The notes beneath the pieces are model-generated. The model was given only the letters and a program-made list of their open reading frames with translations, made no database searches and was not told where the DNA came from. A stretch of DNA of 38,573 nt from assembly GCA_037147155.1 (NCBI GenBank), contig JBAWVR010000002.1:1-38573 (forward strand), written 5' to 3'. Both the position numbers and the translations under genes were made by a program. The stretch comes from a bacterium (GTDB lineage: Bacteria; Patescibacteriota; Minisyncoccia; Phycocordibacterales; GWA1-40-21). Position 1 is the first letter of the stretch. Each line of letters begins with the position of its first letter. Shown here one piece after another: positions 6,271 to 25,563 of this stretch.

Positions 6271-6272
6271 TT

Positions 6273-7061: not shown

Positions 7062-7065
7062 AAGT

Positions 7066-7413: not shown

Positions 7414-7650
7414 AAGGCATTAAACCTTACAAGTTCTGTACAACTTTCGTTTATTTTTAAGTAAAAGCTCAGGGCCTTACAAAGCTCTGAGTGTTCGTTA
7501 TTGTGATTGGGTTGTGGGTGTAAAGTAATATTTAAAGTTATCTACACCGCATCTTTTTTACTATTTGCTTTTTTGTATTTGATGATATAATTATAAGGTA
7601 AAAAGGTCATAGGTCAAAAATTATTAATAAATATTTTTACAAAATAAAAA

Positions 7651-8004: not shown

Positions 8005-8013
8005 TTTAAGTTT

Positions 8014-8256
8014 ATGTCTGCTGACCTTTTAATTAACAAAATTTTAGAAAATATAATCAACCCGATGGTTTATTTTCTGATGGTTGTTGCTATTATTGTC
8101 TTTATTTGGGGATTAGTTCAATATATAAATAAAGAAGCACCGGCTGACAAACATAAAGAAGGTATCGATAAAATGATCTATGGAGCTATCGGTCTGACGA
8201 TTATGTTTTCAGCTCAGGGAATAATTCACATTTTGTTAGATTTTTTAGGTAGGTAG
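8014..8256 (+). CDS. T4SS-pilin-like protein, paralog 6, without an obvious signal peptide
   Basis: 80 aa with two TM helices and the loop YINKEAPADKHKEGIDK. Same core layout as paralogs 1-5. Confidence 0.5.
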   Translation: MSADLLINKILENIINPMVYFLMVVAIIVFIWGLVQYINKEAPADKHKEGIDKMIYGAIGLTIMFSAQGIIHILLDFLGR

Positions 8257-8960: not shown

Positions 8961-9041
8961 GCGCGAGTGGCGAAATTGGTACACGCACTTGCCTTAGGAG
9001 CAAGCGGGGCAACCCATGGAGGTTCAAATCCTCTCTCGCGC
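8961..9041 (+). tRNA. tRNA-Leu (anticodon TAG)
   Basis: Acceptor gcgcgag/ctcgcgc, anticodon loop cttagga, long variable arm, T-loop ttcaaat. No encoded CCA. Confidence 0.9.
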
Positions 9042-9078
9042 ACAAATTAAAATCCCCGAATGGGGATATTTTAATTTG
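9042..9078 (+). terminator. intrinsic terminator after tRNA-Leu(TAG)
   Basis: caaattaaaatcccc gaat ggggatattttaatttg. The stem can extend into the tRNA acceptor 3' strand and its downstream inverted copy. Confidence 0.8.
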
Positions 9079-9266
9079 TGCGCGAGAAACGAGCAATGGG
9101 AATTGCTCGTGTGAGGATTTGAAAGACGGAAGAATATTTTTAGTAAAAAATATTCTGAGTCGGGGTTGCGACCAGTTTTGGCTGACTGAGACAAAACTGA
9201 GTTGTGACCGAGTCCTCCTTATTCTGTCTCGAAGACGATCAGTAAATTATTCCTGACCGAGTCCTT
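9079..9266 (+). repeat. tRNA-matched trailing module, unit A
   Basis: tgcgcgaga + 25-nt hairpin + gaggatttgaa is the inverted tRNA-Leu 3' end. Then GAAAGACGG (9121), a hairpin with a tagtaa loop (9141), GAGtCGGGGTTGCG (9157), a second hairpin, GTGACC (9204), and tcctc pairing back. Tail: aattattcctgaccgagtcct. Confidence 0.7.
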
Positions 9267-9288
9267 TAAATGTGCTATTATTATCTCT

Positions 9289-10146
9289 ATGGAAAAGGAA
9301 CAATTAAGTAATACTGTTAAACAATTTAGTCCGGAATATCAGTCTACATTAGATGAGATTGATAAAATTTCAAACCTTTCACAGGAAGAGCAGGGAAAAT
9401 ACATTAATGAAAGAATAAAAAAACTTTCTGATACTGCTGAAAAAGGAGAAATGTCGACAAGGGGTAAAAAAGTCTGCAATGGTTTTGTTGGTCCAGACAT
9501 GCTGATTCGAAGGAATATTCTTGTTGATCCAATTGTCTTAGATGACCCTTCTTTGTATCAAACCATGTTCGAAACCTTGAAGATGTTTAGAGGGGTTGAA
9601 CACATGAAAGATAAAACCCTGAGACAATTACATATAGGGCTTATTCAGTGGACGATTTCGAAATATTTCGGTAACGAGATCCCGTATAAGGAAACAGAAA
9701 CTGAAAATCGGAATTTTTATATGGAGCGAAGTGGGGCAGATAGCCCGGAAATATCAATATCTGAGCTTAAGGGCAAGGGGTTTGCGGTTTGTGCAGAAAA
9801 AAGTTCTGTAGCCGAAAACCTTTTGGTTTTTTCTGGTCTCGAAGCAAAACTAGTAGTGTCCACCGAATGCCGCATTCCAGAAGAAGCTGAAGAGAGTGGA
9901 CACTATTATAATATTATTTTGGGACCAACCCAAAAGTTTATTTATGATCCGTCCAATCCTAAGTTGGTCACTAATAGTAATGGAAAATTGATCAATTATA
10001 ATCCAGCGATGTATCGGATTAGCGATGAGGATTATGAGAAGTTGATGAATGGAGGGGCGGTAACTGTAGTCCATGTGGACACGGAGGTGTCGGATGGTAT
10101 AGAAAAAAATATCGAAAGTCGACGAGTGTATGGTGGGGTAAAATAA
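9289..10146 (+). CDS. hypothetical protein, possibly with a transglutaminase-like cysteine peptidase fold
   Basis: 285-aa ORF. An ordered Cys..His..Asp pattern (GKGFAVCAEKSSVAENLL, SGHYYNII, YDPSNP) resembles the transglutaminase-core triad. This is a weak call from motif only. Confidence 0.6.
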   Translation: MEKEQLSNTVKQFSPEYQSTLDEIDKISNLSQEEQGKYINERIKKLSDTAEKGEMSTRGKKVCNGFVGPDMLIRRNILVDPIVLDDPSLYQTMFETLKMFRGVEHMKDKTLRQLHIGLIQWTISKYFGNEIPYKETETENRNFYMERSGADSPEISISELKGKGFAVCAEKSSVAENLLVFSGLEAKLVVSTECRIPEEAEESGHYYNIILGPTQKFIYDPSNPKLVTNSNGKLINYNPAMYRISDEDYEKLMNGGAVTVVHVDTEVSDGIEKNIESRRVYGGVK

Positions 10147-10272
10147 TCAAACTGGTATATAGTAAGTAATCGGTGATTAAATAGCAAAGTAAGCAACAAT
10201 GATTTCCAAAATAGAAGTGGCAATTTTCACCTTGCCTTTTCTCATTTTATTTGTTATTTTAATGTAGCAGAC

Positions 10273-10352
10273 AAAATATGCGCCCATACCCGCTCACTTG
10301 AAGACAGGTGCTTCGGGCAAGGCTCAGTTGGCTGATAGTGTTGGTAAAATAT
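10273..10352 (+). repeat. degenerate duplicate of the tRNA-Lys 5' portion with a 33-nt insertion
   Basis: aaaatatgcgcccata occurs at 10273 and again at 10346, the true tRNA start. The upstream copy continues, after the insert cccgctcacTTGAAGACAGGtgcttcgggcaag, with gctcagttgg (the D-arm sequence). Confidence 0.5.
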
Positions 10353-10425
10353 GCGCCCATAGCTCAGTTGGTAGAGCAGTCGCCTCTTAAGCGATTGGTC
10401 GTAGGTTCGAATCCTACTGGGCGCA
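10353..10425 (+). tRNA. tRNA-Lys (anticodon CTT)
   Basis: Acceptor gcgccca/tgggcgc, anticodon loop tcttaag context (cgcctcttaagcg), T-loop ttcgaat. No encoded CCA. Confidence 0.92.
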
Positions 10426-10479
10426 CATCATAAATATTAAAAACCACCAGCTGTCCCTGGTGGTTTTGTTTATGATGTG
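10426..10479 (+). terminator. long intrinsic terminator hairpin after tRNA-Lys
   Basis: Inner stem aaaccaccag/ctggtggttt plus outer stem cacatcataaa/tttatgatgtg, which starts in the last nucleotides of the tRNA. Confidence 0.8.
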
Positions 10480-10612
10480 CGAGCCGGAGTGCGACGGCAC
10501 GAGGCGGGGTCGCGGGTTTTTCTAGCAAGAAAAAACCTGTGACCACAATAAGTGTGCGCCCACAAAATTATTTTTCGAAGGAGAAAAGCGTACTCGCGGT
10601 CCTACCAGTTTT
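10480..10612 (+). repeat. tRNA-matched trailing module, unit B (divergent arms)
   Basis: GCCGGAG-tgc gacg gca-CGAGGCGGGGTCGCGG (10505), a hairpin with a tagcaa loop (10523), GTGACC (10539), then gtgtgcgccca (antisense of the tRNA-Lys acceptor end) and a tcctaccag T-arm-like copy. Confidence 0.6.
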
Positions 10613-10658
10613 ATTTAATGAGTACTTTTATTTCTGAATATTCTAGAATACGATTATT

Positions 10659-11279
10659 CTACCTTTTGAAATAATTATCAACGGTTGGTTCTAGGTCGGC
10701 AACTTCGTCTAATATTTTATAGTAGTTACCTTTCAAAAGAAAATCTTCTGAATGAAAACCCCAAGTTACAGCTATTGATCCAACACCAGCCTTTTCTGCT
10801 TCAATTAGATCACCGAGAGTGTCGGTAATAAATAAACAGTCTTCCTGCTTTAAATCATTATTGACCATTACCATCTTTATTTTTTCAACTTTACTTTTAT
10901 GTACATCATTACCAAGTATTTCACCAAAAAAGTGCCTTATATTATGCTTGGTCATAAAGTCACGAATAAGATCAGTTTTTGTAGATGAAATCACAACCAT
11001 TTTATATTTTTCAGATAGATTTTTAAGAGCGTCAGTCATCCCTGGAAAAACTTTTACGTCATTCAATAAACCTCTGCCGTATTCTATAAAATAATCAATT
11101 TCATGATTACACTTATCATCATGAACACTATGTTTTTCGAAATCATTAATATTTCCCGTAAAAAAGTTTTGGTAATTATCTATGGTTATATTTGGACAGG
11201 TTACTTTTTGCGCTATATAACCATTGTTCAGAGAGTCAGCGATCACACCGTCAAAATCAAATAAAACATACTTATTCAT
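10659..11279 (-). CDS. HAD-superfamily hydrolase (phosphatase-like)
   Basis: Motif I LFDFDGVIADS, motif II VISST, motif IV ITDTLGD. Confidence 0.8.
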   Translation of the reverse strand: MNKYVLFDFDGVIADSLNNGYIAQKVTCPNITIDNYQNFFTGNINDFEKHSVHDDKCNHEIDYFIEYGRGLLNDVKVFPGMTDALKNLSEKYKMVVISSTKTDLIRDFMTKHNIRHFFGEILGNDVHKSKVEKIKMVMVNNDLKQEDCLFITDTLGDLIEAEKAGVGSIAVTWGFHSEDFLLKGNYYKILDEVADLEPTVDNYFKR

Positions 11280-11323
11280 TCCAAAAGTATATCATAATTA
11301 CCCAGATGGCAGAAAGTTTTCCC

Positions 11324-11342
11324 TCGAGTCCCACCTCGGGCG
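11324..11342 (-). repeat. inverted copy of the tRNA-Leu(TAA) 3' end, with no full module
   Basis: The plus strand tcgagtcccacctcgggc equals the sense sequence of the minus-strand tRNA, giving an 18-nt inverted repeat across the terminator. It is followed only by gggaaaac before the HAD gene. Confidence 0.6.
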
Positions 11343-11344
11343 TC

Positions 11345-11372
11345 AAAAAAACACCTTACGGTGTTTATTTTG
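11345..11372 (-). terminator. intrinsic terminator after tRNA-Leu(TAA)
   Basis: aaacacc gtaa ggtgttt plus a T-run, read on the minus strand. Confidence 0.8.
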
Positions 11373-11455
11373 TGCCCGAGGTGGGACTCGAACCCACACG
11401 GCCTTACGACCCCGAGATTTTAAGTCTCGTACGGCTACCATTACGTCACTCGGGC
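11373..11455 (-). tRNA. tRNA-Leu (anticodon TAA)
   Basis: Minus strand gcccgagtgacgtaatggtag..gagacttaaaatctc..long variable arm..gggttcgagtcccacctcgggca. Confidence 0.9.
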
Positions 11456-11456
11456 A

Positions 11457-11593
11457 TTTTGGGGCCTTGCGGCCTGGGGTATCATCGGTCACAACTCTCC
11501 TTCACACCGTCGTGTTCGGTCGGTCGCGACCCCGCCTCGCGGCCGAACCTTGCTAGGTTCGGACTTCGTTCGCTGCGGCTTTCGATTCTCCCC
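11457..11593 (-). repeat. tRNA-matched trailing module, unit C (after tRNA-Cys)
   Basis: Minus strand reads ggggagaatcgaa (inverted Cys T-arm), AGCCGcAGCGAACGAAGTC, a hairpin with a tagcaa loop, CGAGGCGGGGTCGCGACC, a hairpin, GTGACC, then ccccaggcc (a direct copy of the tRNA 3' end). Confidence 0.65.
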
Positions 11594-11619
11594 AAAAAAT
11601 CGCTAACGCGATTTTTTTG
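11594..11619 (-). terminator. intrinsic terminator after tRNA-Cys
   Basis: aaaaaaatcgc gtta gcgatttttt on the minus strand. Confidence 0.8.
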
Positions 11620-11691
11620 AGGCCTGGGGGAGAATCGAACTCCCGCATATTCCTTTTGCAGAGGAATGCTTTACCACTTAGCAACCAGGCC
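11620..11691 (-). tRNA. tRNA-Cys (anticodon GCA)
   Basis: Minus strand ggcctgg..cctctgcaaaagg..gggagttcgattctcccccaggcct. Confidence 0.9.
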
Positions 11692-11730
11692 TTGTCCGTC
11701 TTTTGACGGTGTATTTACTACCGCTATATT

Positions 11731-12069
11731 CTAAAGTTTATTCATCAAATCGTCAATCTTCTGGCGATGCTTCTCTCCGAGGTCCAATTTAAAATCAAAA
11801 GTTGGAACGCGTCCGATTCGCACTTCGCTCATAAAATATTTACGAAACTCCCCACGCATACGCTTGAGAAAATCCTCAGCTTCTGGTTGCTTGTGTACTG
11901 GCATAACGGTGTAGAGTATATAGGCCAATTTACCAGCGTCCGCGAGCTGAACTCCAGTTACAGTAATGAGAGAGATACGACTGGACTCACGTTGAAGAAA
12001 CAACGCGGCTTTTTCGCGAATCATTTCTGCCAATCTACCGTCTCTACTTGAATTGTTTTTAATTTCCAT
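11731..12069 (-). CDS. rbfA: ribosome-binding factor A
   Basis: 112 aa, located immediately downstream of infB. RbfA-like LITVTGVQLADAGKLAYILY and RVPTFDFKLD. Confidence 0.85.
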   Translation of the reverse strand: MEIKNNSSRDGRLAEMIREKAALFLQRESSRISLITVTGVQLADAGKLAYILYTVMPVHKQPEAEDFLKRMRGEFRKYFMSEVRIGRVPTFDFKLDLGEKHRQKIDDLMNKL

Positions 12070-12070
12070 A

Positions 12071-13570
12071 TTATTTTTCTATCATCTTATAGGCTACTAT
12101 TTTATCTCCCGGGGCTGGTTCAACGCTCATCTGCAGTAAACAACCGAACTCGACACCTTCACGCACTTCTTTAGTTTTTTCTTTTTGCTGTTGGAGTCCA
12201 TTAATTTTGCCTTTACCAATTTCTTCTTCACCACGCATTAACTTCACATCGTCACCAACTTCAATCTTTTCTTTTTCTACTCGGCCACCGATCACATACT
12301 TATCTTTGACCGAACTGAAGACTTTGAGAATCTTGGCCTGGCCAGAATTTTCTTCGGCCATAATCTTTGGTGTGCGGGAAGTCATGATTTCTTCCACGTA
12401 CTCAGAAAGCTTGTAGATAATGTTGAAAAGTTTAATTTCAATACCGTTTCTCTCAGCCATACCACGAGCTTGGGGGTCAACTTTGACTTCAAAGCCGAGT
12501 ACCAAAGAACCAGGAGTGCTATTGGCAGTCTTGATATCTGTTTCGGTAATATCGCCAACTCCAGAATAAATTACACGAACTTTGACTCGCTCGTTTTTAA
12601 TCTTGGCTAATTCATGACCCACACCTTCTAGAGTTCCAATATTATCGGTCTTGATAATCAAATCAACAAAAGTAGTGCACTCAGCTTCACCTTCGGCACA
12701 TGGAGAACAGAAGTTAATTTTGGTAATATCTTCTTTGAAACTACTAGCCAATTCTTCGGCTTCACTCTTGGTGGCAACAGTGGTAAAAGGGTAGCCGGCT
12801 TTAGGCATCTTGTTCCAACCGATCACTTTTACTGGAGAAGAGAATTGGGCCTCAGTAATTTTTTTACCAAGGAAGTTTTCCATCATACGAGTCGGAACAT
12901 AGGCATCACCACAGACTACAAACTCGCTAGGATTGATTGAACCATTTTTAATTACCAAAGTAGCAGACATACCTTTCTTGCTATCCATCATGGTTTCAAT
13001 CACAGTACCGTCAGCAGGTAGAGTTGGGTCACCACGGAGTTCTTCCATTTCCGCCACAAGCAGCATCATGTCGAGCAAATCAGACACACCTTGGCCGGTC
13101 TTGGCTGAGATGGGGACAAAGGGGACTGAGCCACCAAAACCCTCAAGATAGACTTCATTTTCAGCTAGATTGATTTTAATTTTTTCTACATCAGCCCCTG
13201 GTCTGTCGATTTTGTTGATAGCGACAATGTATGGCAAACCACTAGCCTTGATACAGTGCAAAGCTTCCAAGGTTTGTTTTTTGACGCCGTCTTCAGCCGA
13301 GACCACCAGGATAGCAATATCAGCAATTTCTACACCGCGAGCTCGAATACCACCAAAGGCCTCGTGTCCCGGAGTATCGAGAAAAGTAATTTTATGGCCA
13401 TTGTGCTCCACTTCATATGCAGAAACTTTTTGGGTAATACCACCAGCTTCGCCGTCAACAATATTGGTTTTGCGAATATAATCTAGGAGCGTGGATTTTC
13501 CATGGTCAACATGCCCGACGATACAAATCACCGGTGGACGGACAATTAGGTTGTTTTTATTTTCTGACAT
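12071..13570 (-). CDS. infB: translation initiation factor IF-2, short form lacking the long N-terminal region
   Basis: RPPVICIVGHVDHGKSTLLD, DTPGHEAF and NKID GTPase motifs, plus the C-terminal IF-2 domains. Confidence 0.95.
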   Translation of the reverse strand: MSENKNNLIVRPPVICIVGHVDHGKSTLLDYIRKTNIVDGEAGGITQKVSAYEVEHNGHKITFLDTPGHEAFGGIRARGVEIADIAILVVSAEDGVKKQTLEALHCIKASGLPYIVAINKIDRPGADVEKIKINLAENEVYLEGFGGSVPFVPISAKTGQGVSDLLDMMLLVAEMEELRGDPTLPADGTVIETMMDSKKGMSATLVIKNGSINPSEFVVCGDAYVPTRMMENFLGKKITEAQFSSPVKVIGWNKMPKAGYPFTTVATKSEAEELASSFKEDITKINFCSPCAEGEAECTTFVDLIIKTDNIGTLEGVGHELAKIKNERVKVRVIYSGVGDITETDIKTANSTPGSLVLGFEVKVDPQARGMAERNGIEIKLFNIIYKLSEYVEEIMTSRTPKIMAEENSGQAKILKVFSSVKDKYVIGGRVEKEKIEVGDDVKLMRGEEEIGKGKINGLQQQKEKTKEVREGVEFGCLLQMSVEPAPGDKIVAYKMIEK

Positions 13571-13612
13571 AGAAAAATTTAATCCGAGTCTTATGAATTT
13601 GACTCGGACTGA

Positions 13613-14083
13613 TTAGTTCAAACGCTCGCTAGTTTCACTGGCCTTGCCGAGAGCATCGCGCTCCTCAACAGTCATTTCAAAGGATGAATTGCCAGCTTTG
13701 ACCGGCTTGGAAAAGATACTAGTATGCTCTCGTGAATAGAGAGTGGAAATCACTACTCCATCACCGTTTTCGTTTACAAAGGCTGTGGCAAAACTTTGAT
13801 TGCCACCTTCACCGACGCCACGCCACGGATTGAAACGAATGGTCTCAACACCACTAATAGCCTTCTTGGCCTTGGTGTGAAGTACTGCCAAATGTTTTTC
13901 GTTTTCGTTTTGGTCTTTTTCCAAATGTTCTATTTTAGCCTTAAGATTAGCGATAGAATCGTCTATCGTCTCACCTCGGCCAACTAGAAGTTTGCTCAAC
14001 TTTATTTCCAATCTAATTATCCAAAAAATTAAGAGGAAAAAAATCAAAACCGCGGAAATTAATTTGTAAGTTTCGAGATCCAT
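13613..14083 (-). CDS. DUF4446-like membrane protein
   Basis: Start taken at MDLETYK. N-terminal TM helix, coiled segment, then ETIRFNPWRGVGEGGNQSFATAFVNENGDGVVISTLYSRE, which is typical of DUF4446. Confidence 0.55.
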   Translation of the reverse strand: MDLETYKLISAVLIFFLLIFWIIRLEIKLSKLLVGRGETIDDSIANLKAKIEHLEKDQNENEKHLAVLHTKAKKAISGVETIRFNPWRGVGEGGNQSFATAFVNENGDGVVISTLYSREHTSIFSKPVKAGNSSFEMTVEERDALGKASETSERLN

Positions 14084-14212
14084 ACAAAAAAGATTATATA
14101 CCAAAAGGACCTAAAAAACAACTATTCCCGAACTTGGATATATTTTGGTTTTATGTATATAATTATATTCAAAGGTTCCAACTATAAATAAATAACAAAA
14201 TGGAGGTGTCTC

Positions 14213-14683
14213 ATGAAAAGACAATGCAGTCTAATAGAAATTCCGGAATATAGATGTCTTGTTAGCATTCACCACACTGAAGCAGCGGCAGAAGACCCAT
14301 TAGAACTCAAGGCCGATGTTTTGGAGATAATCGACAAGCTGGGTGAGAGGAAGGTAAAGAATGCTATCAAAATCAACCGACGAACCTGTACTGTTGGTCA
14401 GATTGTGTGGCAGGAAATCCCTGTTGATGATACACCCGAGTCTATCGGAGATCAGAAACAATTTTTTAGTTTACTCGAGTATCTCGGAGTGGTAGCAAAG
14501 TCAGATCAGTCTGGATTCGATATTTACTACACTGGTTCCAAAGTGTTGATTCTAAACACTGAGGATGAGAAACTTCATTTTGCCAGGGAAAGCGACGCTG
14601 AAGATTACGCCAAACGTTTGTTTGGAGAAAATCTTCAAGAGAAAGGAGTGTCGATTGTCCCATTTGTGGCTGTAGTGGTTTAG
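14213..14683 (+). CDS. hypothetical protein (orphan)
   Basis: 156-aa ORF with a perfect SD (aaatggaggtg) 5 nt upstream and a GC-rich terminator immediately downstream. No family recognised. Confidence 0.6.
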   Translation: MKRQCSLIEIPEYRCLVSIHHTEAAAEDPLELKADVLEIIDKLGERKVKNAIKINRRTCTVGQIVWQEIPVDDTPESIGDQKQFFSLLEYLGVVAKSDQSGFDIYYTGSKVLILNTEDEKLHFARESDAEDYAKRLFGENLQEKGVSIVPFVAVVV

Positions 14684-14686
14684 GGG

Positions 14687-14716
14687 GGCCGGCGCGAAGT
14701 TACGCGCCGGCCTTTT
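14687..14716 (+). terminator. intrinsic terminator
   Basis: ggccggcgcg aagtta cgcgccggcc tttt. Confidence 0.85.
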
Positions 14717-14739
14717 AATTTGTCCTGTTTTGTGTTTTA

Positions 14740-15951: not shown

Positions 15952-15990
15952 GCATTTGTTAAAATACAATTTTTGTATTATTATATAGCC

Positions 15991-16869: not shown

Positions 16870-16932
16870 TTGACCCAAAAGCACAATCTGTTATTCTATT
16901 TAAGAACTTAATTAATTTAACCAATTTTTGCT

Positions 16933-19578: not shown

Positions 19579-19585
19579 AAAATAA

Positions 19586-19615
19586 AACCACTCAGTGTAA
19601 ATGGGTGGTTTTGTT
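19586..19615 (+). terminator. intrinsic terminator after clpB
   Basis: aaaccactc / gggtggttt stem plus a T-run. Confidence 0.8.
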
Positions 19616-19998
19616 ATTAAATATTTTAGGATAAAAGTGAAAGCCCGGTACGCCATCAGTTATATGGACAATACCGGGTTGAGACCTAGGTGGTCTCGGG
19701 TTTTCAACATTATGGGGGTATGGTTGAAAAATAACTTGGCACGACACCCCAGTGTCGCGGAAGTCCATGATCAACTTCATAGTGGTTATACGTTAGGCAT
19801 ATTATGATGCCGAACGGGCCACAGAGAAGTGTATGGGTACTCATGGACAAGGAACCCAATCTGATATGAGTATAGCATATTCAATATGTATTGTCAAGTG
19901 AATTGTGTTTTTATTAAACAAAGCACAAAAATCACTAGTATTATGGCCAATTTTAATGGGTGCAGTGAAAAATTGAAAAACTTTGCTTAAAGAAAAAA

Positions 19999-20724
19999 CT
20001 AGAAGTTAATTATCCAGGCAGATTGAGTTATGTAGTCAGAGCCTTCAAGAATCTTTTTCGTTTCCAGGGCTTCCACGTCAGTTAATTTGAATCTTTCTGC
20101 CAATACTCCAGACAGACCTTCAACTTTTCTATCTTGTATCTTTTCAAAGTTTAGATCTAGTTCTTGCATAAAACCCTCAATATGTTTTGGTGTGCTGAAA
20201 AAGAACTCATTTCTCTTAAGCTTTGGAATAATTCCGCTAAAAAGTTTTTCAGAAGCAGTTTGTAATGGAATAGGATTATCAGAATCTGCGCCTTGATGCT
20301 GAATAATCGCGATTTTTTTTGTTATCCTTTTGATTTCAGTTAAGATTTTATTTTGATCCTCGAAAGTATTCCAAGCAATAGAGTAGCGAGCGATAACTAC
20401 ATCAAAAGCTTTGTCGGAAACAGGAATATTCTTCAGGTTGGAGATAATTTTCTTCATGGCTTGATTATCCTTTAAATCATCCCCATTTACATCAATGGCT
20501 GTCGTTATAAAATTGTAATCAGGCAGGAGCGAAATAAAGTCCGTGAGAAATGCTCCTTTGTGGCTTCCCAAGTCGGCCAAAGTATATTCACCTGGATTTA
20601 ATTTTTCTTTTAGTTTGTTTGTCAAAAATTGAGCTGACTCCTTGTAAATTAGTTTAATAGCCTCAGTAGATCCTTCACCGTGAAAGAGAATGTCAGCGTT
20701 AGCACCTTGGTCTTTTTGATTCAT
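19999..20724 (-). CDS. SAM-dependent methyltransferase-like protein
   Basis: Start taken at MNQKDQG. LADLGSHKG (motif I-like), AIDVN and FDVVIARYS are consistent with a Rossmann-fold methyltransferase. Substrate unknown. Confidence 0.55.
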   Translation of the reverse strand: MNQKDQGANADILFHGEGSTEAIKLIYKESAQFLTNKLKEKLNPGEYTLADLGSHKGAFLTDFISLLPDYNFITTAIDVNGDDLKDNQAMKKIISNLKNIPVSDKAFDVVIARYSIAWNTFEDQNKILTEIKRITKKIAIIQHQGADSDNPIPLQTASEKLFSGIIPKLKRNEFFFSTPKHIEGFMQELDLNFEKIQDRKVEGLSGVLAERFKLTDVEALETKKILEGSDYITQSAWIINF

Positions 20725-20828
20725 ATCTAAATAGTATAAGATAGTTACAAAATTTTGCCAAACCACCAACCGCATTTACTTATAGACATTTTCTAAATAT
20801 TGGTTATAATAGCCAGGTAAGTAAATAT

Positions 20829-20912
20829 GCGCAGGTGGCGGAGTGGTCAATCGCAGCAGACTGTAAATCTGTCGCCCATTGGGCTACGGGGGTTCAAATC
20901 CCTCCCTGCGCA
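20829..20912 (+). tRNA. tRNA-Tyr (anticodon GTA)
   Basis: Acceptor gcgcagg/cctgcgc, anticodon loop actgtaaat context, long variable arm, T-loop ttcaaat. Confidence 0.92.
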
Positions 20913-20954
20913 CACGAAAACAATCGACCGGAGACGGTCGATTTTTTCTTTGCG
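20913..20954 (+). terminator. intrinsic terminator after tRNA-Tyr
   Basis: aatcgaccg gaga cggtcgatt plus a T-run. It is embedded in a longer imperfect hairpin that reaches the tRNA 3' end and its inverted copy. Confidence 0.75.
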
Positions 20955-21092
20955 TGCGCAGGGAGGGATTTGAAAGACGGAGCACACGGAGCGGAGCTAA
21001 GTCCAAGTCTACCAAGACTTGGGTGCGAGTCCGGGTCGGAAAAATTCACGAGTGACGATGAGTGAATTATTTCTGACAATTCCCTCCCTGCG
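20955..21092 (+). repeat. tRNA-matched trailing module, unit E1 (long form)
   Basis: 20955-20974 is a perfect 20/20 reverse complement of tRNA-Tyr 20893-20912. Then AGACGGAGCACACGGAGCGGAGCTAAGTC, a hairpin, GGTGCGAGTCCGGGTCGG, a hairpin with a GTGACGAT loop, ATTTCTGACAATT, and the direct copy ccctccctgcg. Confidence 0.75.
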
Positions 21093-21218
21093 TAGGGATT
21101 TGAAAGACGGGAGAATATTTTTAGTAAAAAATTTGCTGAGACGGGGTCGCGAGTACTTAGACTTTTGAAATTTTGTAATTTCAAAAGACTTAGTAACTCG
21201 TGACCAAATCCCTCGCAC
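21093..21218 (+). repeat. tRNA-matched trailing module, unit E2 (short form)
   Basis: tagggattt GAAAGACGGG, a hairpin with a tagtaa loop, GAGaCGGGGTCGCGAG (21142), a long hairpin, CGTGACC (21200), then aaatccctcgca pairing back to the 5' arm. Confidence 0.75.
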
Positions 21219-21265
21219 ACTATGTACGTTTGGCTTTTCTCTCGTTTTACGCTAATATACACCTT

Positions 21266-22396
21266 GTGAACAAGGATAAACGACAAGGCTTAAGAACCTG
21301 GCTGGAAATTGATACCAAAGCGGCAAAACACAACTTTGCTGAGTTTCGACGTACCATTTCTCCCAAGGCGAAAATTATGGCGGTTGTAAAATCCAATGCT
21401 TATGGTAATGGCTTCTTTGACTACGCCAAACTCATTGATGAAATAGGGGCAGACTGGCTAGGTGTGGACTCTGTGATTGAAGCCAAAACTTTGAGAGGTG
21501 AGGGAATAAAAAAACCGATTTTGATCATGGGTTATACTTTGCCAGAAATGCTATCAGTTGCTGCTAAAAATGATGCCTCAATTTCTGTTTCTAACTTTGA
21601 ATATTTTAAGCACCTAGCACAGTTGAAAGAAAAAAATAAAATCAAAATACATATCAAGGTAGACACCGGGATGCGCCGCCATGGTTTTGACGTTAAAGAT
21701 ATGAAGAAACTATTTTCGGAAATAAAAAAACTAGCCAACAAGATTGAGATTGAAGGTTTGTATACTCATCTGGCTAATGCAGCAGATAAAGACCTGTCCG
21801 AAAAGCAAATCGCTGAATATAAAATCTGGAAAAAAGAATTTGAAAACAAGGGCTACAAACCACTACATCATGTTTGTGGTACTGGCGGCACTATGCTCCA
21901 CCCAGAGGCTCATTTTGACCTGGTGCGAGTAGGTATCGGTCTGTATGGTATGTGGCCGAGCCCAGAGGCTAAAATGATTGTTGGTGACAAAATGAATTTG
22001 AAGCCAGTTCTGTCTTGGCGAACCGTGGTGGGCGAAATAAAAAAACTCAAAGCTGGAGAGGGAATTAGTTATGATTTGTCCGAAGTGGTTAGTCGCGATA
22101 CTGTCGTGGCGGTGTGCCCGATAGGTTATTGGCATGGCCTATTCCGCTCTATGTCTAGCAAGGCCAAGTTTTTGGTGAATGGTGTACCTTGCAAGGTCCT
22201 TGGTCGTGTTTGTATGGATATTGTTATGATTGACGTCACCGACGCAGGTAAAGTAAAGATTGGTGATGAAGTGACGATTGTTGGTAAATCAAAAAATTCT
22301 GAAAACACTATGGAGTATTTAGCTGAGACGGCGGGTACCTCAGCTTACGAATTTTCCACCAGAATCAATCCATTGATCAAGAAAATTTTGCTATAG
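21266..22396 (+). CDS. alr: alanine racemase
   Basis: TWLEID.., the PLP-lysine motif AVVKSNAYGNG, and a C-terminal YDLS..VCPIGYWHG. The start is uncertain. The track start GTG 21200 lies inside module E2, so the in-frame GTG at 21266 just before the conserved N-terminus is preferred. Confidence 0.85.
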   Translation: MNKDKRQGLRTWLEIDTKAAKHNFAEFRRTISPKAKIMAVVKSNAYGNGFFDYAKLIDEIGADWLGVDSVIEAKTLRGEGIKKPILIMGYTLPEMLSVAAKNDASISVSNFEYFKHLAQLKEKNKIKIHIKVDTGMRRHGFDVKDMKKLFSEIKKLANKIEIEGLYTHLANAADKDLSEKQIAEYKIWKKEFENKGYKPLHHVCGTGGTMLHPEAHFDLVRVGIGLYGMWPSPEAKMIVGDKMNLKPVLSWRTVVGEIKKLKAGEGISYDLSEVVSRDTVVAVCPIGYWHGLFRSMSSKAKFLVNGVPCKVLGRVCMDIVMIDVTDAGKVKIGDEVTIVGKSKNSENTMEYLAETAGTSAYEFSTRINPLIKKILL

Positions 22397-22469
22397 TTGA
22401 CTCTCGGTCTATTCAGGAGTATTTTTATTATAGGCTTTGTTCTAACTACAACCATCAAGGAGGAAAACT

Positions 22470-22613
22470 ATGAACTGGTTTTTGATCTGTTTGGTGATTA
22501 TTCTATCTGTCGTCTGTATATGGGCAATCGTCTGGGCTTTTAAAGCAAATATTAAAGCTTGTGCCGACTTGGATAAACAACATCCAAGGCCACCAGTTGA
22601 GCCCAGTGATTGA
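22470..22613 (+). CDS. 47-aa hydrophobic small protein (not in the ORF track)
   Basis: aaggagg SD 7 nt before the ATG. MNWFLICLVIILSVVCIWAIVWAF is a TM helix, followed by a charged, proline-rich tail. Confidence 0.5.
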   Translation: MNWFLICLVIILSVVCIWAIVWAFKANIKACADLDKQHPRPPVEPSD

Positions 22614-22828
22614 TTCGTTGGCGCAAACCACCGTTGTTTGTGTGCAAGCACAGGTAAACCAACAGAAAGGAACACCATGAAAAAGTACTACCCATCACAA
22701 GATGGCGTGTACAAGATCCTGCCGGTCTGAAGGGCACGAAGGTTTCGAAGTATTCACACTTCTGATCTTCAGCACTAAAACCGTCCTCTTCTCCCAAGGG
22801 GCCGGTTTTATATTTGGGAAAATATATG

Positions 22829-22856
22829 TTGACAAAAATATATTTTGGTGTATTAT
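22829..22856 (+). promoter_or_regulatory. near-consensus sigma70-type promoter
   Basis: TTGACA (22829-22834), a 16-nt spacer ending in TG, then TATTAT (22851-22856). It lies about 50 nt upstream of the 22905 ORF. Confidence 0.55.
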
Positions 22857-22904
22857 TTATTTTGAAGCACATTGAAACGCCATTTTTCGAAAAGGAGAGG
22901 TATT

Positions 22905-23156
22905 ATGCTAAAACTGATACTGACTTTATATACAGCTCTTACGGAAACGTTTGTGGTTGGTAGTGGAGATTTTCCCGCTTTACCCGTGGAACATATAGAA
23001 ATGTTCTGCATCGAACCAATGGAATCTTTTGGGATTCCGCTATTGGGTCTAGGTAAACCCGAACTTCAAGATACTGCTTATTGCAACGCTTTCCGCGGTC
23101 AGAGCTTTTTCGAAACCGCGTTTATTCTGGGGAGATACCCAAGTGGTTTCAAGTGA
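22905..23156 (+). CDS. hypothetical 83-aa protein
   Basis: aaaggagagg SD before the ATG at 22905. The track start at 22872 is a less likely upstream alternative. A GC-rich terminator follows. Confidence 0.5.
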   Translation: MLKLILTLYTALTETFVVGSGDFPALPVEHIEMFCIEPMESFGIPLLGLGKPELQDTAYCNAFRGQSFFETAFILGRYPSGFK

Positions 23157-23189
23157 CCACCTGGGTATATAGATCGCCCGTTTAAGCCT

Positions 23190-23228
23190 GCCGGCCGCCC
23201 TTTCTCCAGATGGGTGCGCCGGCTTTTT
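23190..23228 (+). terminator. intrinsic terminator
   Basis: gccggccgc ... gcgccggc stem plus ttttt. Confidence 0.7.
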
Positions 23229-23294
23229 CATTTATAGACCCTTGCTTTTTACTAAAACATAATATATACTTGCTTGGTATTAAACATTAAATTT

Positions 23295-23453
23295 ATGTCA
23301 CAAGTCCAATTGATCAAACTCGGCTGTAAAACCTGTAAGCGAATTAATTACTGGAGCCGTAAGAATAAGAAGAAAGTTGAGCGCAAAATTGAGCTCAAGA
23401 AACTCTGCAAATGGTGTAAAAAAGTTACCATTCACAAAGAAGTTAAGAAATAA
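23295..23453 (+). CDS. rpmG: 50S ribosomal protein L33 (not in the ORF track)
   Basis: 52 aa: MSQVQLIKLGCKTCKRINYWSRKNKKKVERKIELKKLCKWCKKVTIHKEVKK. Two CxxC pairs and the L33 signature NY..KNKK..E.KKxC..C. Confidence 0.9.
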   Translation: MSQVQLIKLGCKTCKRINYWSRKNKKKVERKIELKKLCKWCKKVTIHKEVKK

Positions 23454-23462
23454 TTCTAAAAC

Positions 23463-23486
23463 AAAAAACCGCGAGAGCGGTTTTTT
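23463..23486 (+). terminator. intrinsic terminator after rpmG
   Basis: aaaaaaccgc gaga gcggtttttt. Confidence 0.85.
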
Positions 23487-23531
23487 GTTTGGTTGCTGAA
23501 AACAATATTTTAGGTTAAGATAGTTGGGTTA

Positions 23532-23603
23532 GGGTCCATAGTTTCAATGGTAAAACATCGCACTCCAAACGCGAGGTTCCCCGTTCGAGTCGGGGTGGGC
23601 CCG
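23532..23603 (+). tRNA. tRNA-Trp (anticodon CCA)
   Basis: Acceptor gggtcca/tgggccc (one G-U pair), anticodon loop ctccaaa context (cgcactccaaacgcg), T-arm ccccgttcgagtcgggg. Confidence 0.9.
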
Positions 23604-23635
23604 CAAATAAAAACGCCGAAAGGCGTATTTTTATT
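23604..23635 (+). terminator. intrinsic terminator after tRNA-Trp
   Basis: caaataaaaacgcc gaaa ggcgtatttttatt. With the flanking tgggcccg / cgggccca it forms a roughly 49-nt near-perfect palindrome. Confidence 0.8.
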
Positions 23636-23781
23636 TGCGGGCCCACAGCAGACAAACTGCTTTGTCTGCGTCCCGACTCGAAAGACGGAGCCATGTTTTT
23701 CTAGTAAGAAAAACAGGCGAGTCAGGATCGTGAAAATTAATCAATGACGATTGATTAATTATTCCTGATGATTCGGGGTGG
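23636..23781 (+). repeat. tRNA-matched trailing module, unit F1
   Basis: tgcgggccca + 26-nt hairpin + cccgactcgaa is the inverted tRNA-Trp 3' end. Then AGACGGAG, a hairpin with a tagtaa loop (23702), GCGAGTCAGGATCGTG, a hairpin with an ATGACGAT loop, ATTCCTGATGATT, and the direct copy cggggtgg. Confidence 0.7.
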
Positions 23782-23893
23782 CCCCGACTCGAAAGGCGCA
23801 AGTATATTTTGCTTTGCAAAGCAAAATACTGAGCCGGGATCGCGGAATTTTGTGAGCGACGGCGAGCAAAATATTTGTGACGATTCGGGGTGG
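23782..23893 (+). repeat. tRNA-matched trailing module, unit F2
   Basis: ccccgactcGAAAGGCG, a hairpin, CTGAGCCGGGATCGCGG, a hairpin, TGTGACG, then attcggggtgg. Confidence 0.7.
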
Positions 23894-23946
23894 ATTATTT
23901 AACCGCCGACAATTTAGAATATTCCCGATGATTCGGGGTGGGCCCA
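23894..23946 (+). repeat. terminal direct copy of the tRNA-Trp 3' end
   Basis: ..aatattcccgatgattcggggtgggccca matches the tRNA sequence gagtcggggtgggcccg at 15 of 17 positions. Confidence 0.5.
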
Positions 23947-23956
23947 TCTCCTCGGT

Positions 23957-24856
23957 TTATTTTTTTGTCATAAACTTTCTTATCAACTTCGCAATCCTAT
24001 TCTTATCTTTAAGTTCAAACCATTGAATATTTCTATCACGGCGAAACCAACCCTTTTGTCGGCGAGCATATTGCCAGATAGCCGAGTTCAATTGTTCTAT
24101 CATCTGGTCTTTGGTTATCTGTCCTGTGAGATAGCGGGTGAGATAGCGATACTCCAAACCAAAACCCTCCATGCGTTTCCAAGACACCCCATTATCATGA
24201 AGTTTTCTAATCTCTCTTAACATGCCCACCTTTAATCTTTTGATTAAACGTTTATAGATTCTTTCTTTCAAAACTTCATCAGGTGCAATAACTCCGATTT
24301 GTAGTACATTATATGGCTGTGATGTTTGAACCGGCGGGACTGAACCAATAGTTAAAACAATTTCCAACGCTCGAACAATTTTTACTTTGTTATTTTTATC
24401 AATACGGTCAAAAGTCTTTTTGTCCAATCTTTCCAATTGTCTGAGCAGGGAAGTCAGAGTTTTCTTTTCTAATTTAGCTCGTAGAATTTTATTTGGTTTA
24501 ACACTCGGATAAACAACATCATTGATAACAGCTTGAATATAGAAGCCAGTGCCACCACATATAATAGGAGTGTTTTGACGCTCCAGAATGCCCTTGATCG
24601 CCTTGTTGGCGTCTCTTTGGTATTTTGTTACATTGTATTCCGTCATTGGTTCTACGATGTCTAAGAGATGGTGGGGAACACCAAGCATTTCTTTCTTGGT
24701 GATCTTGCCAGTACCAATAGTCATACCGCGATAGATTTGACGGGAGTCAGCACTAACAATCTCGCCATGAATATCTTTGGCGAGTTCTACGGCGAGGTCA
24801 CTTTTACCGACAGCGGTTGGACCGAGGATAACGATTAATTTTGGTTTAGCAGACAT
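23957..24856 (-). CDS. miaA: tRNA dimethylallyltransferase
   Basis: Start taken at MSAKPKLIVILGPTAVGKS (P-loop). DSRQIYRGMTIGTGK and GGTGFY motifs. Confidence 0.9.
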   Translation of the reverse strand: MSAKPKLIVILGPTAVGKSDLAVELAKDIHGEIVSADSRQIYRGMTIGTGKITKKEMLGVPHHLLDIVEPMTEYNVTKYQRDANKAIKGILERQNTPIICGGTGFYIQAVINDVVYPSVKPNKILRAKLEKKTLTSLLRQLERLDKKTFDRIDKNNKVKIVRALEIVLTIGSVPPVQTSQPYNVLQIGVIAPDEVLKERIYKRLIKRLKVGMLREIRKLHDNGVSWKRMEGFGLEYRYLTRYLTGQITKDQMIEQLNSAIWQYARRQKGWFRRDRNIQWFELKDKNRIAKLIRKFMTKK

Positions 24857-24892
24857 TGATTTAAGATTGGCACAAGAATAGGCGTTTGGCAA

Positions 24893-24917
24893 GGTACAAA
24901 GGGTTACCCTTTGTACC
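24893..24917. promoter_or_regulatory. perfect 11-bp inverted repeat upstream of miaA
   Basis: ggtacaaaggg tta ccctttgtacc, 37 nt upstream of the miaA start codon. It could be an operator or a 5'-UTR hairpin. Confidence 0.4.
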
Positions 24918-24920
24918 TTT

Positions 24921-24950
24921 GTAAAAAGAAAACCAGCCGAGGGGCTGGTT
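24921..24950 (-). terminator. intrinsic terminator of the 59-aa ORF
   Basis: On the minus strand: aaccagcc cctc ggctggtt plus ttcttttt. Confidence 0.75.
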
Positions 24951-24970
24951 TGGTGTGATTGAGGGCAGTG

Positions 24971-25150
24971 TTATTTCTTGCCCTTGGCTTTTTGGAGTTG
25001 GAGCTTGGCCTCATCGAGAAGGACTTTGGTCTCAGTTTTTTGAGTGGGTGTTTGATTGCGCTTCTTGAAAAGCCTATTCAAACGTACAACTTTGTCCTCG
25101 GCGATTTGGATAGGGCTTTGACCCCGTCTGTGGAACATGTCTTCTGACAT
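24971..25150 (-). CDS. 59-aa basic hypothetical protein (below the ORF-track cutoff)
   Basis: MSEDMFHRRGQSPIQIAEDKVVRLNRLFKKRNQTPTQKTETKVLLDEAKLQLQKAKGKK. Weak SD (aaaagga) and its own terminator. Confidence 0.5.
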   Translation of the reverse strand: MSEDMFHRRGQSPIQIAEDKVVRLNRLFKKRNQTPTQKTETKVLLDEAKLQLQKAKGKK

Positions 25151-25239
25151 AATTATAATCCTTTTGGGTTAATGGCAAAAACCGTTGCCATATGTTTATC
25201 TGTGAATGATATTAGAACATTTTGAGTGGAATGGCAAGG

Positions 25240-25301
25240 GGGGGAGACGGGAGAGAGACTTGGTCACGAGTTTCTTCCTCGTCGTCGCCGAAAGAATAAT
25301 C
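25240..25301 (-). repeat. tRNA-matched trailing module, G tail (second direct arm copy)
   Basis: Minus strand attattctttcggcgacgacgaggaagaaactcGTGACCaagtctctctcccg. This is a second direct copy of the tRNA-Leu(CAA) T-stem/acceptor strand. Confidence 0.55.
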
Positions 25302-25439
25302 CGGGAGAGAGACTTGGTCAGGCGTTCTTGGTTCGTCGTCACTCACCAAGCCGCACGACCCTGACTCGTGCTGGGATTCTGCTGAATCCCGACTTCGCTA
25401 CGCTCCGTGCACTCCGTCCTTCAAGTCTCTCTCCCGGCA
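25302..25439 (-). repeat. tRNA-matched trailing module, unit G1 (long form)
   Basis: 25420-25439 is a perfect 20/20 inverted copy of the tRNA-Leu(CAA) 3' end. Minus strand: GGACGGAGTGCACGGAGCGTAGCGAAGTC, a hairpin, AGCACGAGTCAGGGTCGTG, a hairpin with a GTGACGAC loop, CCTGACCAAG, and the direct copy tctctctcccgg. Confidence 0.75.
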
Positions 25440-25480
25440 CATATAAAACAAAAAAGCGCTCTGCGCGCTCTTTTAGTTTG
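25440..25480 (-). terminator. intrinsic terminator after tRNA-Leu(CAA)
   Basis: Minus strand aaaagagcgc gcaga gcgctttttt. Confidence 0.8.
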
Positions 25481-25563
25481 TGCCGGGAGAGAGACTTGAA
25501 CTCTCACGAGCTTGCGCCCGATAGATTTTGAGTCTATTGCGTCTACCATTCCGCCATCCCGGC
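25481..25563 (-). tRNA. tRNA-Leu (anticodon CAA)
   Basis: Minus strand gccgggatggcggaatggtag..tagactcaaaatcta..long variable arm..gagagttcaagtctctctcccggca. Confidence 0.9.

Follow-up and report, generated by a model that had tools for sequence, protein, structure and literature searches.

Candidate structured-RNA cassettes with tRNA-derived arms downstream of tRNA and tmRNA genes in Patescibacteria

The stretch analysed here (hereafter the window) comprises the 38,573 nucleotides of contig JBAWVR010000002.1, positions 1 to 38,573, from a bacterium of the Patescibacteriota (GenBank assembly GCA_037147155.1; lineage GWA1-40-21). ARAGORN and Rfam place seven complete transfer RNA (tRNA) genes in it, in agreement with an earlier note made from the sequence alone: tRNA-Leu(TAG) (8961-9043, +), tRNA-Lys(CTT) (10353-10426, +), tRNA-Leu(TAA) (11372-11455, -), tRNA-Cys(GCA) (11619-11691, -), tRNA-Tyr(GTA) (20829-20913, +), tRNA-Trp(CCA) (23532-23604, +) and tRNA-Leu(CAA) (25480-25563, -), plus a truncated tRNA-Gln (38514-38573). 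Behind six of these eight genes, each in the orientation of its tRNA, lie copies of a small non-coding unit, here called family 1, whose arms are copied from the adjacent tRNA and whose core is shared. The earlier note had counted about nine; a covariance model gives eight full copies, and three partial ones, each a 3' hairpin plus direct arm, were recognised besides. The window sequence recurs in four independent assemblies, single mismatches aside, and is therefore not an assembly artefact.

The layout proposed in the earlier note, in which a tRNA gene is followed by an inverted copy of its 3' segment, a shared core and a short direct copy, was borne out by sequence reading and a repeat finder. 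Behind tRNA-Leu(TAG), host of the first unit, a palindrome (9029-9092, +) joins the acceptor 3' strand, a terminator-like hairpin (9052-9067) and an outer inverted arm; its repeat halves, 9029-9053 and 9068-9092, are 92% complementary. Then come an optional hairpin P0 (ACGAGCAAT-GGGA-ATTGCTCGT) and an inner inverted arm GAGGATTTGAA (together 9089-9123, by sequence reading and RNAfold; inverted repeat 9023-9042 / 9104-9123), and the unit Leu-TAG-1 itself, a three-way junction with inner closing helix (9109-9220, +; cmsearch 67.8 bits, E 3e-20). A partial unit read at 9222-9270 (+) consists of a remnant, GAAGACGA..AGTAA, followed by ATTATTCCTGACCGAGTCCT, and shares with its neighbour the direct repeat TGACCGAGTCCT (9205-9216 and 9254-9265). 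A promoter-like site (9253-9281; CTGACC, 17-nt spacer, TATTAT with a TG extension) stands just before an open reading frame (ORF) starting at 9289, and its -35 box is the CTGACC of this partial unit.

The two loci that depart most from the plan lie next. The palindrome of tRNA-Lys (10422-10481, +) contains the tRNA end, a terminator-like hairpin (10440-10467) and a short inverted arm, GTGCG, with a perfect inverted repeat 10422-10434 / 10469-10481; as claimed, the inverted arm is reduced to the final acceptor-strand bases. The Lys unit (10467-10555, +; 38 bits, E 1e-10) is a short form with reduced arms and a minimal P3 hairpin, and its nearest relatives are short forms in two other genomes (L074:1727-1815 and L140:5726-5814). 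The direct copies described earlier do follow GTGACC or CTGAC, but at Lys the 3' arm is like the 5' leader and acceptor of the tRNA, and not like its 3' strand. The tRNA-Lys leader plus first nine bases (AAAATATGCGCCCATA) occurs twice, 73 nt apart (10273-10361), and the 57 nt between the copies hold CTTGAAGACAGG, like a unit's start, and GCTCAGTTGG, a tRNA D-loop; a third, 75% copy of this segment follows the Lys unit at 10549-10564, where the direct arm normally stands. The repeated leader suggests that on the 5' side an insertion was rearranged or a second one took place. At tRNA-Leu(TAA) only the inverted copy of the tRNA 3' segment is present (11324-11391, -; 32-nt arms, 88% complementary, with the claimed 18-nt exact stretch); core and direct arm are absent, and no model match exceeds 8 bits.

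The remaining loci show the plan at full length. The Cys unit (11476-11595, -; 46.1 bits, E 3e-13), of the GTGACC subtype, has a perfect 13-nt inverted arm (11581-11593 against 11627-11639) and a direct arm, 11467-11487, with 81% identity to 11617-11637. The tRNA-Tyr palindrome (20893-20974, +) runs from the T-loop to the 3' end, through a terminator-like hairpin (20922-20943), into a full inverted arm; the 31-nt halves, 20893-20923 and 20944-20974, are 87% complementary and enclose a perfect 21-mer, in line with the perfect 20-mer reported before. Two units follow: Tyr-1 (20960-21088, +; 69.1 bits, E 1e-20), a long-P3 variant of the CTGAC subtype with direct arm 21077-21092 (direct repeat 94%), and Tyr-2 (21090-21216, +; 57.1 bits, E 8e-17), of the GTGACC subtype, with a short inverted arm at 21094-21104 and a direct arm at 21205-21220.

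At tRNA-Trp the palindrome (23595-23682, +) comprises a terminator-like hairpin (23613-23626), an outer inverted arm, a P0 hairpin (GCAGACAAA-CTGC-TTTGTCTGC) and an inner inverted arm, and both inverted repeats, 23595-23613 / 23628-23646 and 23584-23594 / 23672-23682, are perfect; here and at Leu-TAG a 25-nt hairpin splits the arm, as claimed. Trp-1 (23668-23780, +) is the strongest match in the window (91 bits, E 7e-28), Trp-2 (23781-23892, +) was found by nhmmer and by cmsearch with filters off (67.2 bits, E 4e-20), and the partial Trp-3 (23892-23946, +), recognised from direct-repeat families D1 and D2 and by sequence reading, retains a 3' hairpin remnant, CCCGATGA and a direct arm. On the minus strand, the palindrome of tRNA-Leu(CAA) (25420-25500) joins the tRNA 3' segment, a terminator-like hairpin (25449-25475) and a full inverted arm (29-nt halves 25420-25448 / 25472-25500, 90% complementary). 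It leads into Leu-CAA-1 (25305-25434, -; 83.9 bits, E 2e-25), whose 16-nt direct arm, 25301-25316, matches the tRNA perfectly, and a partial Leu-CAA-2 (25245-25300, -), read as a 3' hairpin, GTGACC and a direct arm; a 39-nt direct repeat (25248-25286 / 25302-25340, 82%) links the two. The exact 10-mer CGGGGTCGCG lies where the earlier note put it, at 10505, at 21142 and on the minus strand at 11525-11534.

The terminators that were said to follow each tRNA need a different description. Terminator-like hairpins do follow Leu-TAG, Lys, Tyr, Trp, Leu-CAA and Leu-TAA, but each is really the tip of a longer palindrome reaching into the tRNA, so that the tRNA 3' segment, the trailer hairpin and the inverted arm form one long hairpin. 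The eight full units score 38-91 bits (E 1e-10 to 7e-28) and the next match in the window 11 bits, with a covariance model built only from units of other genomes and holding no window sequence. Several family-1 subtypes coexist in the window, and the nearest relative of each is in another genome. Other assemblies of the window strain (L001-L003, L028-L032) are identical but for single mismatches, and so offer no polymorphism.

All eight window units fold as a three-way junction on the tRNA-sense strand (RNAfold). From 5' to 3' a unit consists of the inverted arm (I), a GAAA junction, helix P2, an internal loop, hairpin P3, an A/G-G junction, helix P4 and the direct arm (D), and I pairs with D as the closing helix P1. 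P2 joins G-N-C to G-N'-C and swaps its middle pair freely among A-U, C-G and G-C; the internal loop beyond it contains one bulged G and tandem G.A pairs and opens into the variable P3; P4 pairs GGUCG with UGACC and carries at its base an invariant G.U beside a U-C or C-G position. The consensus is ..ganunGaAagnCGGAg-(P3)-cGAGncnGGGuCGng-(P4 tip)-cnUGaCcnanuc.., with lower case for less conserved positions. Some units replace the inner U-A and C-G pairs of P1 by tandem G.A (..GA-GAAAG with CGA..), which implies that the helix is kept at the RNA level only. We considered a K-turn for the P2/P3 loop and rejected it, since one base is bulged there instead of three.

Comparison across genomes supports this fold. 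In a MAFFT alignment of 58 units from other genomes, RNAalifold recovers P2, P3 and P4, with compensatory changes at 21 of 30 pairs. With P1 added, 90.9% of cells are paired, as against 33-49% when partners are slid by 1-3 columns, and the covariation score is 0.593, as against 0.08-0.15 in the slid controls, a value that none of 500 shuffles reaches. Among 125 distinct units in a model-aligned set, which is fitted to the structure and hence leans towards it, paired cells make up 92.1%, both partners vary in 37 of the 39 pairs, and the score is 0.634 against 0.10 or less in controls. CUGAC pairs with GGUCG in at least 120 of these 125 units, and many units carry GUGACC instead.

The same comparison assigns the structure to one strand. 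The fold is more stable on the sense than on the antisense strand in 161 of 166 units, by a mean of 7.5 kcal/mol, and the invariant P4 G.U is present in 120 of 122. Counted on the tRNA-sense strand of the model-fitted alignment, G.U exceeds A.C in P3 (25:10) and in P4 (44:9); the sequence-only alignment has no G.U excess, an artefact of that alignment which the model-fitted count corrects. This excess in the core helices points to an RNA on the tRNA-sense strand, and conservation of this type in turn suggests that the transcript matters. To judge from these substitution patterns, the core helices behave as RNA, and the arms more like copied, decaying DNA. Thus the earlier suggestion of a three-way-junction non-coding RNA (ncRNA) with a tRNA-derived closing helix is supported by covariation and G.U excess.

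The origin of the arms can be read base by base. Starting near the discriminator and going back as far as T54, the tRNA gene has its exact complement in I, which a small hairpin looped CUGC or GGGA often interrupts where acceptor and T stem meet. D repeats the tRNA gene from C56 up to the discriminator and then 0-15 nt of flank, an extent that varies between units; the repeat is longer in tandem arrays and has no added CCA. As D runs past the tRNA end, it was copied from DNA, not from mature tRNA. A primer-binding-site-like copy of the mature tRNA is accordingly rejected: there is no CCA complement and the repeats reach into flanking DNA. Nor is I a copy of the tRNA 5' strand. The T stem of tRNA-Tyr contains a G.U pair, and I reads GAGGG, the true complement of the 3' strand, where the 5' strand has GGGGG. 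With I and D paired, P1 replicates the acceptor and T stems of the neighbouring tRNA.

As the earlier note had predicted, the arm sequence tracks the adjacent tRNA. Over positions 59-73, ungapped, D averages 64% identity to its own tRNA and 38% to other tRNAs; it reaches 80% or more in 45 of 96 units (28 of them perfect) as against 0.8% of cross-comparisons. In genome JAIPIY01 the cores of the units behind tRNA-Ser(GGA) (L087) and tRNA-Ser(TGA) (L097) differ at two positions, and the differences between their arms are exactly those between the two tRNAs. It is the local tRNA that the arms follow, and not the lineage of the core. By a test independent of the core, 63 of 173 tRNAs in the genome set have an inverted copy of their own T-loop/T-stem (12 nt within 170 nt), and the reversed-sequence control has none.

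Other RNAs also mimic an acceptor/T helix or take host sequence into their fold, among them the transfer-messenger RNA (tmRNA), YrlA, mascRNA, plant-virus 3' ends and the R2 ribozyme with host 28S. Young copies of the unit resemble them in that P1, pairing the complement and the copy of positions 57-72, supplies a 12-bp acceptor/T minihelix, a likeness that could expose the RNA to tRNA-processing enzymes. Unlike tRNA-like domains, the units have a three-way junction in place of the T-loop, D often ends before the discriminator, so that a 3' discriminator/CCA is missing, and the mimic is specific to each neighbouring tRNA.

The family extends well beyond the window. We scanned one genome per species with an exact pattern (GAAAGNCGGAG, gap, CGAGNCNGGRTCG, gap, YTGAY), and at least 119 stretches match; those listed are clearly this same element with one exception, which lies in coding sequence of a Gemmatimonadales bin. 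By record label, at least 49 are Saccharibacteria, about 54 of those listed are Paceibacteria, Parcubacteria, Kaiser-, Adler-, Nomura-, Moran- or Taylorbacteria or 'Patescibacteria group', and seven stand under other, unverified labels (Bdellovibrionales, Elusimicrobia, Deltaproteobacteria). The covariance-model search proposed in the earlier note turned up many further copies in other genomes, at least 161 units in the listed stretches. Against Rfam 15 the tRNA regions of the window match tRNA models only, and the units match nothing even at E up to 10; blastn against phage and plasmid collections left the unit unmatched, in viral contigs a looser pattern found nothing beyond chance matches to coding regions, and full-text literature searches, raw sequence strings included, returned nothing relevant. 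No Rfam, insertion-sequence (IS), miniature inverted-repeat transposable element (MITE) or attachment-site (att) identity emerged. The family is widespread in Patescibacteria and apparently undescribed.

Position relative to the tRNA is equally regular. Of 169 units, 110 are preceded by a same-strand tRNA no more than 150 nt away; 8 come after another unit in an array, 8 stand at 150-400 nt from a tRNA, 14 fall at locus edges, and upstream of the other 29 ARAGORN calls no tRNA. Several of these 29 follow a tmRNA, two by Rfam and others by eye (L064:3114-3540 and L088:7673-8000; also L072, L077, L080, L124 and L126), and their arms are copied from the tmRNA 3' end. One more follows a tRNA split by a group I intron: in L150 the intron (1701-1928, -; Rfam 56.9 bits) is just upstream of the unit and probably sits inside the tRNA, hidden for that reason from ARAGORN. 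Of 19 sampled isotypes, 18 have units behind them; the lone tRNA-His has none. A simple consensus test finds a terminator-like hairpin in 61 of 110 tRNA-unit spacers and none in the other 49, and since those 49 lack one, co-transcription of unit and tRNA is plausible from sequence. We also considered that the direct arm normally precedes the native terminator; this is ruled out, because a terminator-like site follows only 26 of 106 units.

Some individual loci are unusual. In L111 and L140, labelled Adlerbacteria and Saccharibacteria, a 161-nt block about 400-560 nt upstream of the units is 89% identical between the two; no Rfam family matches it, it could belong to a large conserved RNA or to an intron, and in both loci only a degenerate tRNA-like 3' end lies just upstream of the unit. 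L079:6940-7777 holds two identical copies of tRNA-Gln plus unit in opposite orientations, head to head, which points to an inverted duplication or else to the assembly itself. In L146 (1731-2678) a 315-aa ORF separates tRNA-Cys from a unit with tRNA-Glu-type arms that adjoins a decayed tRNA-Glu-like fragment; the ORF has only a weak, sub-threshold Pfam match to DIT1_PvcA.

So regular a placement could mean that the units serve the host. Read in that way, the unit would be a beneficial cis-encoded RNA of tRNA metabolism, its trailer released by ribonuclease (RNase) Z and its spread secondary, and the tRNA-mimicking helix or the antisense arm would act on the tRNA beside it, perhaps in 3'-end processing or quality control, by sequestering the 3' strand, or as a decoy for enzymes or toxins that recognise the acceptor/T minihelix. 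Strong RNA-type conservation of sequence and structure across distant classes agrees with it, as do the strict orientation and position relative to the tRNA, an inverted arm complementary to the real tRNA even where D has drifted, the roughly 45% of units with no terminator-like hairpin in the spacer, and the units at six of eight tRNAs in the window genome.

Distribution among relatives is what makes us doubt it. A metagenome scan gave 80 loci that are syntenic in having an alanine racemase gene (Alr 42-53% identical to the window's) beside tRNA-Tyr. Their 65 tRNAs include orthologues of three occupied window loci, namely 21 for Tyr, 18 for Trp and 7 for Leu-CAA, and the model finds only 7 units: five behind the Tyr, Leu-CAA or Trp tRNA of L156 and L221, and the rest in L154 and L188; L186 also has one. 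A core-independent search agrees, finding the inverted T-loop/T-stem copy at 8 of 57 tRNAs in these loci and none in the reversed control. Most orthologous Tyr, Trp and Leu-CAA tRNAs in syntenic relatives are thus without the element, and so is the tRNA-Gln of the window genome itself, which continues just beyond the window end and has no unit. An essential or general tRNA function should be distributed more evenly; the patchy presence makes an essential role less likely for the tRNA-maturation or antisense device raised in the earlier note. Copies are also commonly truncated or decayed, and differing cores occupy the same arms. Overall we consider a host-beneficial RNA an unlikely explanation, if one with real points in its favour.

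The cores themselves show no allegiance to the tRNA behind which they stand. When genomes are compared, two cores that share an isoacceptor resemble each other no more (identity 0.598) than two that do not (0.593), and 17 units have their nearest neighbour in the same genome, where 1.4 would be expected. Units also occur in arrays and as truncated copies, and one locus (Leu-TAA) is arm-only. Taken together, the patchiness, the many isotypes and tmRNA, the arrays, truncated copies and arm-only remnants, the cores of one genome that differ at two positions but have unlike arms and the missing orthology signal argue for repeated spread and against a vertically inherited tRNA accessory. The earlier idea of a small non-autonomous element aimed at the T-loop-to-3'-end segment is supported in this way, but its variant, a recombination scar alone, misfits the RNA-type conservation. 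The ncRNA and non-autonomous-element readings, first offered as alternatives, appear both to be true of one thing.

No enzyme was seen to be linked to the units. As claimed, no integrase, transposase or reverse transcriptase (RT) was found, here on about 56 kb of the 78-kb contig, and no recombinase, RT or transposase recurs within 1.5 kb of the units in 119 loci. Clustering of nearby ORFs gives only housekeeping neighbours (SmpB, ParB, MiaA, HU and CCA-adding enzyme). A gene like that for the CCA-adding enzyme, recognised by eye from its N-terminal sequence, lies within 1.5 kb of units in 6 of the 119 loci (L135:1050-2519 and five more), probably through synteny with the tRNA. ORFs between the tRNA and a distant unit (L146, L139) have no recombinase-like Pfam match. 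With no linked element-encoded protein, any enzyme would act in trans or be a host function.

Known elements that insert at tRNA genes offer the closest comparisons. Integrative elements (phages, integrative and conjugative or mobilizable elements, and cis-mobilizable remnants) use the same targets, tRNAs of many isotypes and tmRNA, and likewise leave a direct repeat of the gene's 3' segment starting in the T-loop, keep the gene intact and accrete in tandem. One could therefore see the units as a DNA recombination site or scar, remnants of integrative elements at a T-loop-to-3'-end attachment site, with the core as leftover arm-type binding DNA or a folded single-strand recombination site. That segment is one described integrase sublocation in tRNA and tmRNA genes and fits the direct repeat that bounds the insert; the targeting of tmRNA and the tandem units, as in element accretion, fit as well. 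Unlike integrative elements, however, the unit spans some 100-200 nt with neither element body nor integrase gene nearby, its arms match each local tRNA and are not element-borne, and it has an extra inverted copy, which has no role in such sites. The covarying RNA junction inside, with compensatory changes, a strand-specific G.U excess and conserved G.A and G.U pairs, is likewise foreign to a scar, which we judge very improbable. An integron attC site is ruled out as well: its consensus, RYYYAAC ... GTTRRRY at the ends of an imperfect palindrome, lacks a counterpart in the units, which end ..NUCGAA and CGAN.. with no R''/R' ends.

Small palindromic elements are analogues of another kind. MITEs, Rickettsia palindromic elements and the palindrome-associated transposable elements (PATEs) derived from IS200/IS605 are also small, non-coding, multi-copy, structured and patchy; they too have truncated copies and can sit in or next to RNA genes. 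Unlike them, the units show no conserved terminal inverted repeats, are tied strictly to one structural feature of tRNA-like genes and have RNA-type covariation, and in place of a fixed-length target duplication they have a duplicated target of 18-40 nt, variable and in both orientations. Integrative and palindromic elements are the nearest functional analogues, and the units lack the defining features of both. Retron msr-msd regions likewise close a stem from flanking inverted repeats (a1/a2) around two structured arms. A retron is nevertheless rejected, as no reverse transcriptase is near any unit; the closing stem is tRNA-templated, and there is no sequence or model similarity. We know of no described system that has either an inverted target copy or a covarying RNA junction closed by target-derived strands.

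Family 1 is not alone in this niche. Several tRNAs with inverted and direct arms give no model match and have a different interior. Family 2 (GCCCRAUUG..CAAUUGGG-RUACUG-hairpin with a UGUAA loop) occurs at L154:4560-4838 (-), L162:6400-6664 (-), L230:1323-1600 (+) and in L060 (behind tRNA-Arg GCG), and a third core type at L223/L224:3685-3950 (+). Nothing in Rfam covers the cores of these loci at E up to 1, and the termini differ among families 1, 2 and 3. Unrelated cores in the same arms imply that the tRNA-derived arms are a shared platform, of which family 1 is one occupant.

Such a platform invites a catalytic reading, since several ribozyme classes were first found via a shared genomic context. 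The cores could be small self-cleaving (and re-ligating) ribozymes, the families being different classes with one job at the tRNA-arm junctions, or units of small circular RNA or DNA replicons integrated at tRNA genes. Some ten near-invariant nucleotides at junction and non-Watson-Crick positions of a compact three-way junction suit a ribozyme, as does at least one other unrelated core in the one context, and the repeat period from C56 to C56 is what Campbell-type insertion of a circle with one tRNA-segment copy would give. We find this quite unlikely all the same: none of the ribozyme models in Rfam matches at thresholds up to E 10, nothing points to cleavage, circles or multimers, and direct repeats that take in flanking DNA, with no CCA, argue against an RNA origin of the arms. 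The specific candidate is the type II hammerhead, likewise a three-way junction with GAAA on one strand; some copies, Trp-1 among them, even have CUGAUGA beside the open helix. A hammerhead needs unpaired CUGANGA and GAAA, an A15.1-U16.1 pair and a non-G at 17. In the units CUGAC is paired in P4 and is often GUGACC, the base after P2 is A, G or C and is followed by G, positions 15.1/16.1 and 17 misfit, and no hammerhead model matches at E up to 10; the hammerhead is ruled out.

Combining these observations, we propose that the units are uncatalogued, non-autonomous and probably mobile structured-RNA cassettes that lie 3' of tRNA and tmRNA genes, take their arms from the target and leave the gene intact. 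Our confidence in this proposal is evenly balanced. The cassette would spread between tRNA and tmRNA genes by copying, not by cut-and-paste; the core alone would be carried over, and both arms would be re-synthesised from the new target. Switch points may be the near-universal T-loop sequence TTCGA (palindromic as TTCGAA) and the hairpin that immediately follows the gene, and the product would be the tRNA 3' segment, inverted copy, core and direct copy beside an intact tRNA gene. The order of parts, with one fixed boundary in the T-loop and one variable boundary in the trailer, fits copying with template switches, which would also explain why the tRNA is never damaged. The cassette would be transcribed within the tRNA 3' trailer. 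Its fold would be under selection either because the RNA is a transposition intermediate or guide, or because a closing helix that resembles tRNA allows RNase P, RNase Z or the CCA-adding enzyme to excise and stabilise it. The transcript could thus be an intermediate or guide for spread, a stable trailer RNA or a ribozyme.

Several observations weigh against this proposal. P1 itself, in the model-fitted alignment, has G.U and A.C near parity (71:56). Where D has drifted (positions 57-65), I pairs with the tRNA only at 73 positions, is compensated to D at 28 and pairs with both at 25; as I tracks the tRNA more than D, the I-tRNA hairpin is kept at least as well as P1 and may matter as much. No transposition intermediate, empty/filled allele pair or mobilising enzyme was found; among the syntenic loci the sole length difference is a small protein gene, and L153/L154 lose synteny right after the tRNA. 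An old, dispensable feature that was lost again and again could leave the same patchiness, and the exact-pattern sampling over-represents one subtype and so biases the family statistics. With a terminator-like hairpin in 61 of 110 spacers, transcription of many units would need read-through. Copy-choice, finally, is deduced from anatomy only.

A bolder form of the cassette proposal, which we offer tentatively and think somewhat unlikely, would be a new kind of mobile element with no terminal repeats of its own: the RNA core moves, the arms are rewritten for each target, and the RNA acts as a self-reprogramming, tRNA-templated guide. Families 1, 2 and 3 would share this entry route, and some cores might be new ribozyme classes. 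Each strand at the 3' end of the tRNA gene would have its complement in one arm of such a guide, which could pair with the tRNA, with both strands of its gene or with itself.

Apart from the units, the window has a small-gene cluster upstream of the first tRNA (4161-8256) with matches to a type IV secretion system pilin (T4SS-pilin, PF18895).

If the cassette proposal is right, a common, unannotated class of structured RNA stands beside tRNA and tmRNA genes across a bacterial phylum. Very small as these genomes are, some have units at most of the tRNA loci sampled. The units produce false ORF calls in Patescibacteria genomes and hide real intergenic structure, which bears on their annotation. 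They include at least one new covarying RNA motif, a candidate for catalysis or protein binding, and they open to direct test the mechanism by which arms are formed on the target's template. A selfish or accessory RNA would then land on the most conserved feature of a tRNA gene, do it no damage, and borrow the gene's own sequence to close its fold.

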